Of a stretch of 58,145 nucleotides of DNA, positions 40,156 through 43,679 are shown piece by piece. A model generated the notes under the pieces. The model was not told the origin of the DNA, did not search any database, and saw nothing but the letters and a program-made list of their open reading frames with translations. The stretch is from NCBI GenBank assembly GCA_021298835.1, contig JAJTHG010000029.1, positions 1 through 58,145 of the forward strand, given 5' to 3'. Numbering within the stretch: the stretch's first letter is position 1; each line of letters opens with the position of its first letter. Made by a program: the position numbers and the translations under genes. Source of the DNA: Gemmatimonadota bacterium. Its GTDB lineage: Bacteria > Gemmatimonadota > Gemmatimonadetes > Gemmatimonadales > Gemmatimonadaceae.

Positions 40156-40950
40156 CTAGCGCTGGCAGCCCGCGCAGTACCAGGTGCCGCGCGCTCCGTG
40201 CACCACGCGCCGGATGCGGCGCCCGCAGCGCCGGCACGGCTCGCCGTCGCGACCGTACACCATGAGCTCGTGCGTGGTCGCCGTCGTCTGCGCGGTGGCG
40301 AAGACGCGGCCCGGCTCGTCGAGCCCGCGCGACAGGGCGAGGCGCACCGCGTCGAGGAGCCGCGCCGCACGCGAGGGGCCGATCCGGTCGGCGGGGGTGT
40401 CGGGATGCACGCCGGCGTGCCACAGGGCTTCCGCCGCGTAGATGTTGCCGACGCCCGCGAGGACGCGCTGGTCGAGGAGGACGAGCTTGATCGCCGCGCG
40501 GCGGCGCGCGAGCGCGGCACGGAAGCGCGCCGGGGTGAAGCCGGGGTCGAAGGGCTCGGGTCCGAGTCCCGCGACGGGATCCTCGCCGGCGCGATGCCAG
40601 GTGACGGTCGCGAAGGCGCGGGGATCGACGAGCGACACGCGGCGGCCGTCGTCGAGGGCGAGCGCGAGGCGCGCGTAGCGCGGGAGCGGGGCGTCGGCGG
40701 GGCCGACATTCCAGTCGCCGTCGAGCCGGAAGTGCGCGACGAGCCGGTCGCCGCGGGCGAGCTCGAACAACTGGTATTTGCCGCGCCGGGCGACGGCGAG
40801 CACGCGCTGCCCGACGGCGGCGCGGACGTGCGCCGGAGGCAGCGCCCGCCGCGTCGAGGGGTGCAGCCGCGCGACTGCACGCAGGACCCGCCCTTCGACG
40901 AAGGGGCGCAGGCGGCGGATGGCGAGCTCGACCTCAGGGAGTTCGGGCAT
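40156..40950 (-). CDS. mutM: Formamidopyrimidine-DNA glycosylase.
   Basis: MPELPEVELAIRRL... has catalytic Pro2 and Glu3. ...LGPEPFD..., helix-two-turn-helix LLDQRVLAGVGNIYAAEALWHAGVHP, and a C-terminal zinc finger CRRCGRRIRRVVHGARGTWYCAGCQ. ATG at 40948-40950. Confidence 0.9.
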   Translation of the reverse strand: MPELPEVELAIRRLRPFVEGRVLRAVARLHPSTRRALPPAHVRAAVGQRVLAVARRGKYQLFELARGDRLVAHFRLDGDWNVGPADAPLPRYARLALALDDGRRVSLVDPRAFATVTWHRAGEDPVAGLGPEPFDPGFTPARFRAALARRRAAIKLVLLDQRVLAGVGNIYAAEALWHAGVHPDTPADRIGPSRAARLLDAVRLALSRGLDEPGRVFATAQTTATTHELMVYGRDGEPCRRCGRRIRRVVHGARGTWYCAGCQR

Positions 40951-41156
40951 GCGCGGGGAGTGTATCGCGGCGGCGCTCGCGGCGCGCCGTCGCGGAGCGG
41001 GAAGGTCTCCCCGTCGAAAACGCATGTTTCCACACCGATGGGGATACTTGCCCGCAATCACTTGACGGACATGGAGTTATGCCTTGCGGCACGGTGGAAA
41101 ACCCCTAGTTTCGCACAGGTAGGGCTGCGGGCGTCGGCCCGCGCCGGGGGGCACTG

Positions 41157-41906
41157 GTGATCCTGTCCACGCACTCGCTGTCGTCCGAGTACGCGCTGTT
41201 CGTCGAGCGCGAGATCGAGCAGTACAAGGACTCGATCCCGCGGGGCACGCTGCTGGCCATCGGGGACGAGGCCGTGCGGCAGCTGGGGGCCCAGCCGCAG
41301 TTCGCGCTCACCGAACTGGTGCTCGTGGAGGAAGTCGACCGCATCATCGCCCGGCGACTGCGTATCCCGTCGTACCGCGCCTGGAAGGCGCGCCGCCTGA
41401 AGCAGCTGCAGGAGCTGCGGCGGCCGGAGACGTGGGGGCTTTCGCGCGACTCGATCGTCGTCCGGGAGCTGAGCCACGCGGCCGACGCGCACGTCGTCGT
41501 CGCGGACAACTCGTCGAGTGCGCTCTACCTCGCGGCGCACGGGTGCATGGTGACCGCGATGCACGACGAGCCGGCGCTCGTCGCGCGGGTGATGGAGGCG
41601 GCCGAGGAAGCCGGGCTCACGATGTACCTGACCGGCCTCGTCGGATCGCTCGGCGACTACGCCCCCCACACCCCGTTGGCCGCGATCGTCTACAGTGCGA
41701 GCGCGCTCGCCAAGCTCCCGGTCGAGCACCGGGAGCAGGTGCTCGCCGCCTGGCAGCACGCGACACGACATGGCGGCGTGCACGTCGTCGATCCGCGCGC
41801 GCTGTCGCTCGAGGAACTCAAGTCGCGGTACGTGGGCTGGACCGTGTCGGTCGAGCGCGAGGGAACGAGCCACGAGACGTTCCTGGCGCGGAAGGAGACC
41901 GACTGA
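41157..41906 (+). CDS. Hypothetical protein (possible degenerate methyltransferase-like fold).
   Basis: Normal composition and GC3 bias. The opposite-strand ORF 41058..41873 is Arg/Gly junk. HVVVADNSSSALYLAAHGCMVTAMHDEP...AAIVYSASALAKLP loosely resembles SAM-MTase motifs I and post-I without a glycine-rich loop. GTG start at 41157; no ATG nearby. Confidence 0.5.
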   Translation: MILSTHSLSSEYALFVEREIEQYKDSIPRGTLLAIGDEAVRQLGAQPQFALTELVLVEEVDRIIARRLRIPSYRAWKARRLKQLQELRRPETWGLSRDSIVVRELSHAADAHVVVADNSSSALYLAAHGCMVTAMHDEPALVARVMEAAEEAGLTMYLTGLVGSLGDYAPHTPLAAIVYSASALAKLPVEHREQVLAAWQHATRHGGVHVVDPRALSLEELKSRYVGWTVSVEREGTSHETFLARKETD

Positions 41907-41951
41907 GGTTGTATCGTTTCGACACGGGGCGACGTGTCGGGATGAAACAAC
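41907..41951 (+). terminator. Stem-loop immediately after the stop of the preceding CDS.
   Basis: ggttgt...cgacacg-gggcga-cgtgtcg...acaacc is a nested inverted repeat starting 1 nt after TGA 41904-41906. No clear U-tract follows. Confidence 0.3.
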
Positions 41952-42081
41952 CGGATGCCCTCGTGCGGATACGACTATTCCAAGTCATTCTCACACAACG
42001 ACTTGCGTTAACGATGGTCCTCCGGATCACGCGGCACGAGGTCTGCTCTGCACAGGGTCGCAAGCAGTTTCCTCCTTCATT

Positions 42082-42243
42082 ATGACCATGCGCACCTACC
42101 AGCCCCTGCCCGCGACCGACGACCCCATGGGCATCGTCATCAATCGCGGGCCTCGCGAACCGGATCGGGTCGAGCATCCGCGGGTTCGCGCCTACGTGTG
42201 GGCGCCCGCCCCGGACGAGTTCGACTCGGCGCTGGCGGCGTAG
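42082..42243 (+). CDS. Candidate small ORF (53 aa), hypothetical.
   Basis: MTMRTYQPLPATDDPMGIVINRGPREPDRVEHPRVRAYVWAPAPDEFDSALAA. There is strong GC3 codon bias, the ORF sits in an otherwise unannotated gap, and two hairpins follow it. There is no convincing Shine-Dalgarno sequence. Confidence 0.3.
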   Translation: MTMRTYQPLPATDDPMGIVINRGPREPDRVEHPRVRAYVWAPAPDEFDSALAA

Positions 42244-42286
42244 CCGCAGCTGGTTGCCGCCTCGCGGACCGTTCCCGCGAGCGATG

Positions 42287-42317
42287 ACGCCTCACCCGAC
42301 GCAGTCGGGTGAGGCGT
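42287..42317. terminator. Perfect 13-14-bp stem-loop (a bidirectional terminator candidate between convergent small ORFs).
   Basis: acgcctcacccgac-gcag-tcgggtgaggcgt, followed on the plus strand by tgtcatat. It is preceded by a second weaker hairpin, ctcgcgg-accgttc-ccgcgag, at ~42261-42281. Confidence 0.4.
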
Positions 42318-42423
42318 TGTCATATCCGGTGCGCGGCGCGACGGCCCGTCGGCGGGGCGGATGAACGTACGAAAGCCGGAAGCGAACACGCTCCCGGCTT
42401 TCGTTGCGTTCGAAGAACGACGA

Positions 42424-42513
42424 CTAGCGCTTCGTGGCCTTCTTCTTCGTGGCCTTCTTCTTCGTCGCCTTCTTCTTGGTGGCCTTCTTCGCGGCCTTCT
42501 TCTTCGCAGCCAT
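42424..42513 (-). CDS. 29-aa Lys/Ala-rich highly basic micro-protein (MAAKKKAAKKATKKKATKKKATKKKATKR).
   Basis: ATG at 42511-42513 (minus) with GGAG 8 nt upstream (ctGGAGcgttgacaATG). The stop is TAG at 42424-42426. The coding DNA is a 15-bp tandem repeat (ggccttcttcttcgt x ~5 on the plus strand). Confidence 0.45.
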   Translation of the reverse strand: MAAKKKAAKKATKKKATKKKATKKKATKR

Positions 42514-42809
42514 TGTCAACGCTCCAGAAATTGGAGTGTGAACGCCAAACGATTCCCCCGGTGGAATCGCGGACGGGACAGCACGGTGCTGGCTAGCGCC
42601 GTGCTCCGATGTGCCGCACCCGGACGGGCGCGGGTGATGTCGTGGAGGCAGGAGACTGCGGCGGCGGCGACGTCGCGGCGGGCTGCGCTCATCGCGCCAC
42701 CGCCTCGGTGCTGGTGCATCGCTCGCTCGGCTTTCGCCACACCGTATCCTGGGTTCGTGATCGTCATCCTTGTCGTGCGACGCAGGTGCCGCTCGTCAAG
42801 GTCTTGCGC

Positions 42810-42839
42810 TTGCTTCGGGCAATAATAGGACGGTATAAA
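42810..42839 (+). promoter_or_regulatory. Sigma70-like promoter in an AT-rich island upstream of the SDR/tdh/kbl cluster.
   Basis: TTGCTT (42810-42815), an 18-nt spacer, then TATAAA (42834-42839), inside ...gggcaataataggacggtataaaaatgcgcgcaatacctattcacacttttccacaaatcg..., an AT-rich patch in a ~70% GC genome, ~50 nt before ATG 42888. Confidence 0.4.
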
Positions 42840-42887
42840 AATGCGCGCAATACCTATTCACACTTTTCCACAAATCGCGAGTCGCTG

Positions 42888-43679
42888 ATGGATCTCGAAC
42901 TTCTTGGTCGCGTCGCCGTCGTCGGCGGCGCATCACGCGGGCTCGGACGCGCGATCGCGCGTGAACTCGCACGCGAAGGATGCGACGTCGCCCTCCTCGC
43001 GCGCGATCCTTTCACTCTCGCGAACACCGCCGCCGACATCTCCGCCGAGACGGGATCGCGCGCGATCGCGCTCCCGTGCGACGTGCGGGATCCCGCGCAG
43101 GTCGCGCGCGCGCTCGCCGACGTGGACGCCATGCTCGGCGCGCCGGACATCCTCGTCGCGAACAGCGGAGGACCGCCCTCGACCACGGTGGCCGACATGA
43201 CCGAGGCCCAGCTGCGCGATGCGCTCGACGGGAACCTCGTCGCCTCGGTGCGCCTGGCGCAGGCGGTCGTGCCGGCGATGCGCGCGCGGCGCTTCGGCCG
43301 CGTGGTGTTCCTGACCTCGATGGCGGCGAAGATGCCCCTGCCGGGCCTCGTGCTCTCGAACGCCGCCCGCGCGGGGTTGCTGGGGTACGCCAAGACGCTC
43401 GCGAACGAGGTGGCCGCCGACGGCGTGACCGTGAACACCGTCCTGCCGGGCCACTTCGACACCGACCGGGCGCGGGAACTCGCCGAGCAGCGCGCCCGTC
43501 GCGAGGGCGTCCCGGTGGAGGCGCTGCTGGCGCAACGGGCCGCGACGATCCCGATGCGGCGCACGGGACGGCCGGAGGAGATGGCGGCGGTGGTCGCCTT
43601 CCTCGCGTCGCCGCGGGCCAGTTTCGTCACCGGCGTCGCCCTGCAGGTGGACGGCGGACAGGTAGCGTCGCTGCTCTGA
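42888..43679 (+). CDS. Short-chain dehydrogenase/reductase (SDR family oxidoreductase).
   Basis: The NAD(P)-binding motif in VAVVGGASRGLGRAIARELAREG follows the TGxxxGxG pattern. The active-site region is ...LTSMAAKMPLPGLVLSNAARAGLLGYAKTLANE..., and the length is 263 aa. ATG at 42888. Confidence 0.85.
   Translation: MDLELLGRVAVVGGASRGLGRAIARELAREGCDVALLARDPFTLANTAADISAETGSRAIALPCDVRDPAQVARALADVDAMLGAPDILVANSGGPPSTTVADMTEAQLRDALDGNLVASVRLAQAVVPAMRARRFGRVVFLTSMAAKMPLPGLVLSNAARAGLLGYAKTLANEVAADGVTVNTVLPGHFDTDRARELAEQRARREGVPVEALLAQRAATIPMRRTGRPEEMAAVVAFLASPRASFVTGVALQVDGGQVASLL

Follow-up and report, generated by a model that had tools for sequence, protein, structure and literature searches.

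Bacterial histone H1-like proteins made of Lys/Ala repeats, such as Hc2, BpH1 and AlgP, are known at sizes of 150–350 aa. Here we describe a minimal form of such a repeat protein, a 29-aa polycationic micro-protein encoded on the minus strand at positions 42424–42513 of contig JAJTHG010000029.1 from a Gemmatimonadota bacterium (the whole stretch of 58,145 nt is called the window in the following), together with the structured leader RNA and the 3' hairpin of its gene and the family to which it belongs. Judged from a 249-aa protein encoded nearby, the window lineage is an uncultured member of the Gemmatimonadaceae that is represented by several metagenome-assembled genomes.

Hc2 and BpH1 consist of consecutive Lys/Arg-rich pentamers whose other positions are mostly Ala, Val, Thr or Pro, they are encoded by in-frame DNA repeats and vary in length, and Hc2 has been found to bind DNA (PMC2848022). 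Both Hc2 (HctB, from Chlamydia) and BpH1 (from Bordetella and Burkholderia) have 165–237 aa, and their sequences include conserved flanks and higher-order repeats of 36 aa. In AlgP an α-helical N-terminal domain of about 124 aa precedes an H1-like C-terminal domain of KPAA repeats; KPAA peptides bind DNA, and the protein associates with polyphosphate granules and spaces them (PMC9239181). The C-terminal domains of AlgP (AlgR3) and of PhaF from Pseudomonas are disordered, H1-like tandem repeats rich in Lys and Ala, and eukaryotic H1 tails and sperm protamines are likewise unstructured, roughly 40–60% basic, and neutralise and condense nucleic acid. The gene that we compare with these systems was defined from the sequence, the list of open reading frames (ORFs) and Tandem Repeats Finder:

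42424–42513, minus strand: coding sequence of the polycationic micro-protein MAAKKKAAKKATKKKATKKKATKKKATKR (29 aa), ATG at 42513–42511 and TAG at 42426–42424

The side chains of MAAKKKAAKKATKKKATKKKATKKKATKR carry a charge of +16 (15 Lys and one Arg). Tandem Repeats Finder reports a repeat at 42430–42506 with period 15, 5.3 copies, 83% matches and a score of 112; its 15-bp unit is AAGAAGAAGGCCRCG, encoding KKKAT or KKKAA, and one copy is short of an AAG, the pentamers of the peptide reading KKKAA, KK-AT and three times KKKAT. A Shine-Dalgarno (SD) sequence GGAG at 42525–42522 is followed by 8 nt and the ATG. An earlier note on this DNA had already described a 29-aa peptide at these coordinates, about five copies of a 15-bp unit and a GGAG-N8-ATG ribosome-binding site, and in all of this it was right; its net charge of +15, however, has to be raised to +16, and the coding strand is the minus strand. 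With 57% G+C the ORF stands out from the window (73% G+C), Lys makes up 52% of the peptide compared to 0.7% in the long open frames of the window, and no other open frame of the 58 kb has eight or more Lys within any 18 residues. The Lys-rich ORF is therefore far from a chance feature. Gene callers had annotated the 29-aa gene on three near-identical and two more distant contigs and missed it on others. A TTG start leading to 31 aa, which is not on record as a called gene, was set aside because the ATG at 42513 is the conserved start, its spacing to the SD and to the leader being constant.

As in Hc2 and BpH1, the window peptide is made of Lys-rich pentamers encoded by an in-frame 15-bp repeat, with three basic residues per pentamer instead of the two found in Hc2 (PMC2848022). 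It differs from them in consisting of the repeat only (29 aa, 15–126 aa within the family) and in having a dedicated structured leader, and the strain-level size polymorphism of Hc2 and BpH1 was not seen in the window species. Compared to AlgP it contains no Pro, lacks a folded domain and is about 12 times shorter. The family shares its physics with H1 tails and protamines and its members of 15–60 aa, some of them Arg-rich, are protamine-sized, but they are bacterial, dominated by Lys and not by Arg, have no winged-helix domain and do not match Pfam Linker_histone; the likeness to H1 and protamines is one of composition and says nothing about common descent. Judged from its sequence, the window protein is best described as a bacterial H1-like repeat protein reduced to a minimum and standing by itself, nearer to a protamine in size and charge density. 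The description as an H1-tail-like or AlgP-like peptide without a folded domain, also made in the earlier note, thus fits a Lys/Ala polycation from a genuine small gene whose longer relatives match the Pfam family HC2.

A selected micro-protein family in the Gemmatimonadaceae

In order to place the window peptide into a family we gathered 80 species-level Gemmatimonadaceae loci via the gene of a neighbouring 249-aa protein (41157–41906, plus strand), and in most of them a Lys/Ala-rich ORF was found on the convergent strand 0.5–3.5 kb from this gene. Using a shared upstream motif as anchor, 50 distinct pairs of leader and ORF were obtained, all ORFs opening with MA. They encode 22–126 aa and fall into two classes, one of 22–61 aa and one of 89–126 aa with an APAPAPAAA-type tail. 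The 50 proteins are composed of K (38.7%), A (28.9%), R (7.6%), G (7.5%), T (5.1%), V (4.3%) and S (3.5%), with K+R ranging from 31 to 59% and D+E at 0.2%; F, W, Y, H, C and L do not occur at all and Ile occurs once in 3372 residues. Their stop codons are TAG (27), TAA (22) and TGA (1), although TGA is expected to be common in genomes of about 70% G+C like these.

The family was extended by scanning metagenome contigs with the 18-nt core of the leader hairpin P2 (see below) alone, leaving the downstream sequence unconstrained, which returned at least 120 stretches. Among the first 100 of them, a covariance model of the leader (R1) gave 54 full-length matches with 42–76 bits, and the remaining stretches, mostly bare matches to the pattern, scored at most 35 bits. 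All 53 evaluable strong matches have an ATG and a K/R-rich ORF 46–59 nt downstream, one more being cut by the end of its contig. Among the matches listed, the leader is therefore found only with this gene family. The metagenomes also contributed the shortest members with 15–21 aa, for example MAKKKKAKKKAAKKK and MAAKKKAAKKATKKKAAKKK, and genomes and metagenomes together yield at least 94 distinct proteins of about 15–126 aa with a K+R content of 30–69%. Counted by host, leader, ORF and terminator were seen together in about 60 Gemmatimonadaceae species and on more than 50 metagenome contigs, and the proteins are nearly free of acidic and of bulky hydrophobic residues.

Conventional searches hardly reach these proteins. 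Pfam PF07382 (HC2, histone H1-like nucleoprotein) is matched by 7 of 39 members that share the leader, the best being a 118-aa protein from Roseisolibacter (54.1 bits, E 2.7e-14, cutoff 40), and no other family is matched. The window peptide does not reach the PF07382 gathering score of 40 bits, for which it is too short, and has no Pfam or NCBIfam match at E ≤ 1 and no match to a chain in the Protein Data Bank (PDB) at E ≤ 10, which can be explained by the query being short (29 residues) and of low complexity. Thus the family overlaps HC2, even if its 29-aa member cannot be filed there by score. A homology search with a 107-aa family member gave only 10 weak and unrelated matches, none of 10 members looked up exactly was present in the protein collection, and phmmer with the 31-aa TTG-start form found 0 matches among 1.8 billion representative proteins.

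The substitution pattern was analyzed in 52 pairs of equal-length coding sequences that are 80–99.9% identical. Differences at codon positions 1, 2 and 3 number 71, 67 and 262, corresponding to 212 synonymous and 100 nonsynonymous codon changes, the latter being mostly A/T, K/R and A/V exchanges. Of the 255 Arg codons in the 50 species proteins 232 are CGN, so that a swap from Lys (AAG) to Arg usually needs two to three base changes and keeps the charge but not the RNA sequence. Close relatives agree with this picture. The syntenic ORF of 29 codons is kept in the relatives whose neighbouring 249-aa protein is 90% and 79% identical (L087 and L089), with two synonymous and no nonsynonymous changes in the former and one synonymous and two nonsynonymous changes (A8V and T12A) in the latter, and all basic positions are unchanged in both. 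Third-position bias, the use of CGN codons and the changes within the clade together show selection on a translated, positively charged product; it is the charge of this product, and not a DNA or RNA repeat, on which selection acts. These comparisons establish the gene as genuine and conserved. The earlier note had named a repeat that is absent or out of frame in close relatives as evidence against its reading, and what we find is an ORF in frame across dozens of species with the substitution pattern of a protein-coding gene.

The length of the protein is stable over short evolutionary distances. Six contigs of essentially the same species have an ORF, leader and terminator identical to those of the window, 29 aa are encoded in seven near-identical strains and also in the 90% and 79% relatives, and the single length change in the clade is a deletion of one codon in a 75% relative. 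Only across distant lineages does the length span 15–126 aa, with a repeat period of 4 aa in some and 5 aa in others. The suggestion that slippage would alter the peptide in steps of 5 aa is thus not supported, as copy number does not differ within the species or the clade and length shifts only over deep divergence.

A conserved leader RNA in an autonomous cassette

Upstream of the family ORFs lies a leader of about 70–130 nt. Its structure was set by hand, tested and then realigned with the covariance model, and in the window it comprises the following elements:

42522–42536, minus strand: hairpin P3, anti-SD CUCCA (42536–42532) paired with UGGAG (42526–42522), loop AUUUC, 8 nt to the ATG
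42544–42574, minus strand: hairpin P2, upper stem CGAUUCC/GGAAUCG, hexaloop ACCGGG, lower stem with a bulge
42576–42633, minus strand: hairpins P0 (42633–42614) and P1 (42607–42576), predicted in the fold of the window leader

P2 is topped by the decamer CCACCGGGGG (42564–42555 in the window), which includes the ACCGGG loop closed by CC/GG. This decamer is unchanged in 55 of the 57 species leaders and occurs once per locus, always on the strand of the gene and always 5' of the ORF, starting 41–53 nt (mostly 49–53 nt) before the ATG. The stem pairs below it covary, with pair types GC32/UA16/AU2, UA20/AU19/GU6/GC5 and UA43/AU4, and the lower stem also varies in register. On a plain MAFFT alignment 85% of cells are paired and covariation scores 0.32, compared to 72% and 0.11 for shuffled alignments; none of 500 shuffles came up to the observed values and slid controls gave 0.05–0.14. 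Realignment with the covariance model agrees with this MAFFT-based covariation. From the plain alignment RNAalifold retrieved no more than the inner stem of P2, as the register of P2a and P3 differs from lineage to lineage. An asymmetric invariant centre with covarying arms argues for an RNA hairpin and against a dimeric DNA operator.

P3 comes directly downstream of P2 and contains the SD. It is present in both the minimum-free-energy fold and the centroid of the window leader, where the SD has a pairing probability of 1.00; over 50 leaders the median is 0.95, with 47 of them at 0.73 or higher. The fifth pair of P3, which lies outside the SD core, is A-U, U-A or U-G depending on the species. 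In the window, opening of the SD is predicted to cost 7.4 kcal/mol compared to 4.3 kcal/mol in shuffled controls. The spacing of GGAG and ATG that led the earlier note to call the ribosome-binding site good is correct, but this GGAG is part of a conserved hairpin that had been overlooked, as had the dedicated leader with its invariant loop.

The P0/P1 region (42576–42633) is 91–96% identical to that of relatives while the spacer further upstream is 60–81% identical, and other lineages show hairpins of different sequence at the equivalent positions. Leaders fold more stably than their dinucleotide shuffles in all 50 cases (negative z, median −3.1). R1 matches once per locus, its single match in the window covering 42511–42578 (52.6 bits, E about 1e-14). 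A search of 41500–43200 against Rfam 15 with permissive filters gave no minus-strand match at E ≤ 1, and 14 related loci gave nothing at gathering score except fragments of rRNA. On the plus strand Scr6925, a Streptomyces small RNA, matched 42281–42406 with 27.8 bits (gathering score 50, E 0.037); this match spans two back-to-back terminator hairpins, which are GC-rich, and has most likely arisen by chance. Taken together, the comparisons show that the leader forms a conserved RNA structure which belongs to this gene family specifically, and make it a candidate for a new cis-regulatory RNA motif.

Known leaders that sequester the SD (riboswitch platforms, RNA thermometers, operators of ribosomal proteins) place an SD hairpin after a structured element, just as P3 follows P2. 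In contrast to these, the structured element of the cassette comprises one hairpin only, whose ACCGGG hexaloop is invariant and closed by CC/GG, and it has no match in Rfam; any switching between alternative structures is hypothetical. Pairing of the G-run of P2 with the anti-SD as a possible ON state is left as an idea, since the sequence duplication that would support it (UCCAC in front of the anti-SD) was seen in no more than about half of the lineages. Variant leaders were observed in a minority of lineages, with the K-rich ORFs of L032, L062, L065, L079 and L083, in which the P2 loop is a tetraloop (UCC-AUCG-GGA) or P2 is replaced and P3 is built from CUUC/GGAG; these variants have a clearer promoter-like site, TTGCTT-N17-TATATT, about 75 nt before the ATG.

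The two ends of the transcription unit may be marked by the following elements:

42363–42411, minus strand: terminator-like hairpin 12 nt past the stop codon, 16-bp stem GAAAGCCGGGAGCG-UGUU-CGCUUCCGGCUUUC (core 42404–42369), extended by GAACG/CGUUC
42822–42850, minus strand: candidate sigma-70-type promoter TTGCGC-N17-TATTAT, found by eye in an AT-rich region shared with the divergent gene of a short-chain dehydrogenase/reductase (SDR)

The 3' hairpin of the window folds with −45.2 kcal/mol (z −3.7), and its upper stem shows compensatory changes in L087, L089 and L090. A stable hairpin follows the stop codon in all 50 family members, with z below −2 in 48 of them, and many of these hairpins are canonical terminators with A-tract, GC-stem and T-tract. 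Consensus scans for promoters and terminators flagged nothing between 41800 and 43000; the window terminator escaped because it has no T-run. The candidate promoter has a weak −35 element, does not pass the consensus scan and, if used, would lead to a 5' untranslated region of about 300 nt; its region is 89–97% identical in L087 and L089, and the next 185 alignment columns are 60–81% identical. Identity to the 79% relative amounts to 91% in the leader, 93% in the coding sequence and 84% in the 3' hairpin, compared to 60% in the upstream spacer and 34% beyond the hairpin.

The genes around the cassette differ between lineages. In the window the neighbourhood consists of the SDR gene, tdh, a pyridoxal-phosphate-dependent (PLP) enzyme and a methyltransferase-like gene, whereas in other lineages the cassette adjoins TldD/PmbA-like and ATP-grasp genes and not SDR/tdh. 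The genes downstream of the micro-protein lie convergently on the opposite strand, both in the window and in other lineages. Leader, ORF and terminator thus form an autonomous, monocistronic cassette. Having its own leader and terminator beside quite different neighbours, the cassette represents neither a DNA repeat serving the SDR/tdh promoter, which the earlier note had offered as an alternative and which is hereby refuted, nor an attenuation leader peptide. The gap of 982 bp (41907–42887) matches the 1-kb gap of that note, but the gene does not sit alone in it, as the gap also contains the structured leader, the terminator hairpin and a conserved ORF of 53 aa.

This 53-aa ORF (MTMRTYQPLPATDDPMGIVINRGPREPDRVEHPRVRAYVWAPAPDEFDSALAA, 42082–42243, plus strand) and the micro-protein gene are convergent. 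Gene callers annotate the ORF on related contigs, its versions in relatives share 88% and 75% identity with it, and Pfam gave no match. After it, at about 42283–42318, lies a GC-rich hairpin GCCTCACCCGAC-GCA-GTCGGGTGAGGC. An 83-aa ORF at 42516–42767 on the minus strand, which some callers give as 58 aa on near-identical contigs, ends 2 nt before the micro-protein ATG; it is probably a spurious open frame of high-G+C DNA, as it overlaps the conserved leader and is not called in L087 and L089.

A TldD/PmbA-like protease gene has its true 3' end (...IKVRDFNFTSLSEAV* or ...FTSLxEAV*) just before the leader in many lineages. Other lineages contain a short relic of such an end (DFTCLFEAV*, LTCTTPLETV*), which ends in TAG and folds as P0. 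The relic region was examined in L007–L086, 60–110 nt upstream of the P2 motif (e.g. L044 6942–6990, L008 and L033), and in the window clade no such relic was found. The cassette seems to have taken along, when it moved, a fragment of the gene that once lay upstream of it. As TldD/PmbA-like and ATP-grasp genes are found nearby, a precursor of a ribosomally synthesized and post-translationally modified peptide (RiPP) was also considered; this was rejected because the neighbourhood is not conserved, cores with Asp/Glu, with Cys or rich in Ser are lacking and the gene has its own terminator. The 5' end of a 23S rRNA gene is located 4–6 kb from the cassette in L028, L044, L054 and L071, an adjacency which is not consistent.

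Proposed function and rival explanations

As a whole, the data are best explained by a cassette that makes a disordered polycation coating polyanions, with its translation held in check via the leader, and we give this explanation a probability of about 0.62. The ORF would be translated into an intrinsically disordered polycation, about half Lys and Arg and for the rest Ala, Thr, Gly and Ser. With no fold and nothing conserved beyond MA-KK, this protein most likely acts through its charge alone, coating and neutralising cellular polyanions. DNA would be the likeliest target, for compaction or protection of the nucleoid, with RNA or polyphosphate as possible others; on the analogy with the described H1-like proteins, such a non-specific binding of polyanions, DNA first among them, is what we consider probable for the product.

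P3 would pair with the SD and thereby restrain production after transcription, and a conserved trans-acting factor or ligand probably reads P2 and decides on the access of ribosomes. Since the P2 loop does not vary, whereas composition is all that is conserved in the protein, this reader is more likely a cellular factor or ligand than the peptide itself. We put the odds at about even that P3 restrains translation and that modulation occurs through P2. We thus infer three things from the locus, namely the binding of polyanions, translational control and a factor reading P2.

An Hc2-like role in DNA binding and nucleoid condensation has circumstantial support from the composition of the protein and from a related enzyme. 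In Gemmatimonadetes bacterium RYN_360 (L084, 1967–3019, minus strand) the DNA repair enzyme Fpg/MutM, a formamidopyrimidine-DNA glycosylase, ends in an AKK tail (AAAKKAVKKVAKKAAKKAAKAVRKQIPKAVAKKVATKRR) of about 40 aa that follows the zinc finger. Its gene adjoins the same neighbouring gene, and the ortholog in the window is located at 40156–41061 (minus strand). This may be a hint, by analogy, that AKK tails serve DNA binding in this clade.

Several points weigh against this explanation or limit it. The function is deduced from composition and analogy, and the sequence does not separate DNA from RNA or polyphosphate as target. Similar composition, and not descent, may lie behind the matches to Pfam HC2, and no family model matches the window peptide. 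Concerning the leader, the family median for opening of the SD is 4.5 kcal/mol compared to 3.55 kcal/mol in controls with shuffled upstream sequence, a modest difference that lies above the control in 34 of 50 cases, and P3 is weak in L014, L023 and L053. Part of the conserved upstream sequence could be TldD/PmbA-like coding sequence or its relic. Finally, every genome locus was chosen through one neighbouring gene, and the sampled range is the Gemmatimonadaceae.

The strongest competitor, which we nevertheless regard as unlikely, is a polycation that buffers polyphosphate or sits on its granules, AlgP-like and not nucleoid-associated, with a leader that couples its synthesis to the status of phosphate or polyanions. 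Gemmatimonas aurantiaca was isolated as a polyphosphate accumulator, and a charge of +16 over 29 residues would bind any polyanion. The sequence does not tell polyphosphate from DNA. AlgP, with its H1-like Lys/Ala/Pro repeats, does localise to polyphosphate granules (PMC9239181), but its folded N-terminal domain of 124 aa is absent from the window peptide, and no ppk, ppx or CHAD-domain genes were found beside the cassette in the loci examined.

Slightly less probable again is a basic protein associated with the ribosome or with RNA, either an accessory ribosomal protein or an RNA chaperone, whose leader would be an autogenous operator mimicking its RNA site. Structured leaders occluding the SD are typical for the autoregulation of ribosomal proteins, and a strong SD, TAA or TAG stops (49/50) and strong terminators would suit abundant expression. 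A length of 15–126 aa and a repeat period that depends on the lineage do not suit a fixed site on the ribosome, however, and an invariant P2 loop next to a highly variable protein argues against this protein as its specific ligand. Small ribosomal proteins of the bTHX, bL36 and bS22 type are recognised by a family model and by a conserved sequence of fixed length, whereas the window peptide matches no ribosomal-protein family in Pfam or NCBIfam and no PDB chain. As only composition is conserved, a ribosomal-protein role appears unlikely.

A more daring extension of the disordered polycation, which we consider a long shot, is a homeostatic "protein polyamine" system, in which an oligolysine of 15–126 residues would be made on demand. 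The CCACCGGGGG hairpin would then be a tiny new sensor of the balance between polyanions and polycations, riboswitch-like or factor-binding, that opens the SD hairpin only when positive charge is needed. Polyphosphate, Mg2+, polyamines or the state of the nucleoid would be candidate signals.

That the region is untranslated, being a DNA-level regulatory repeat for SDR/tdh or part of a non-coding RNA, is very improbable. Slippage can produce tandem repeats of low complexity, other frames of the repeat are open as well, and the weak Scr6925 match falls into the 3' hairpin region. This match lies on the other strand and scores far less than the gathering threshold, though. In about 100 independent sequences ATG and SD keep a constant spacing to an invariant leader motif, and this, variation mostly at third positions, changes from K to R via CGN codons and a cassette not tied to SDR/tdh but found beside unrelated neighbours all speak for a translated gene. 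An exported or membrane-active antimicrobial peptide is just as improbable: the peptide is short and very cationic, but it has no signal peptide and no hydrophobic or aromatic residue, hence no amphipathicity, which makes membrane activity unlikely, and genes for transport, immunity or modification are not consistently found next to it. Least credible of all is a Lys/Thr/Ala-rich leader peptide controlling a downstream gene by attenuation, since despite its runs of single residues followed by a hairpin, which resemble thr-, his- or leu-type leader peptides, ORFs of the family reach 126 codons, far more than attenuation leader peptides have, and the co-directional downstream gene that peptides like thrL and hisL need is missing in the window and likewise in other lineages, where the genes past the hairpin are convergent.

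Significance of the cassette

In summary we describe a protein that we infer, with its function read from composition and context, to be a new minimal variant of H1/Hc2-like polycations. New is the widespread occurrence of this minimal H1-like form in the Gemmatimonadaceae, an abundant but poorly studied family of soil bacteria, as micro-proteins of down to 15 residues that consist of the charged repeat alone. Gene finders miss these genes or call them unevenly and homology searches do not reach them, so that the leader, via the covariance model R1, provides a search handle for them and the cassette a clean test case for the annotation of small proteins in high-G+C genomes. With this knowledge two questions become testable, namely how the dose of a potentially toxic polycation that may condense nucleic acids is controlled, and what reads the invariant 10-nt hairpin loop.

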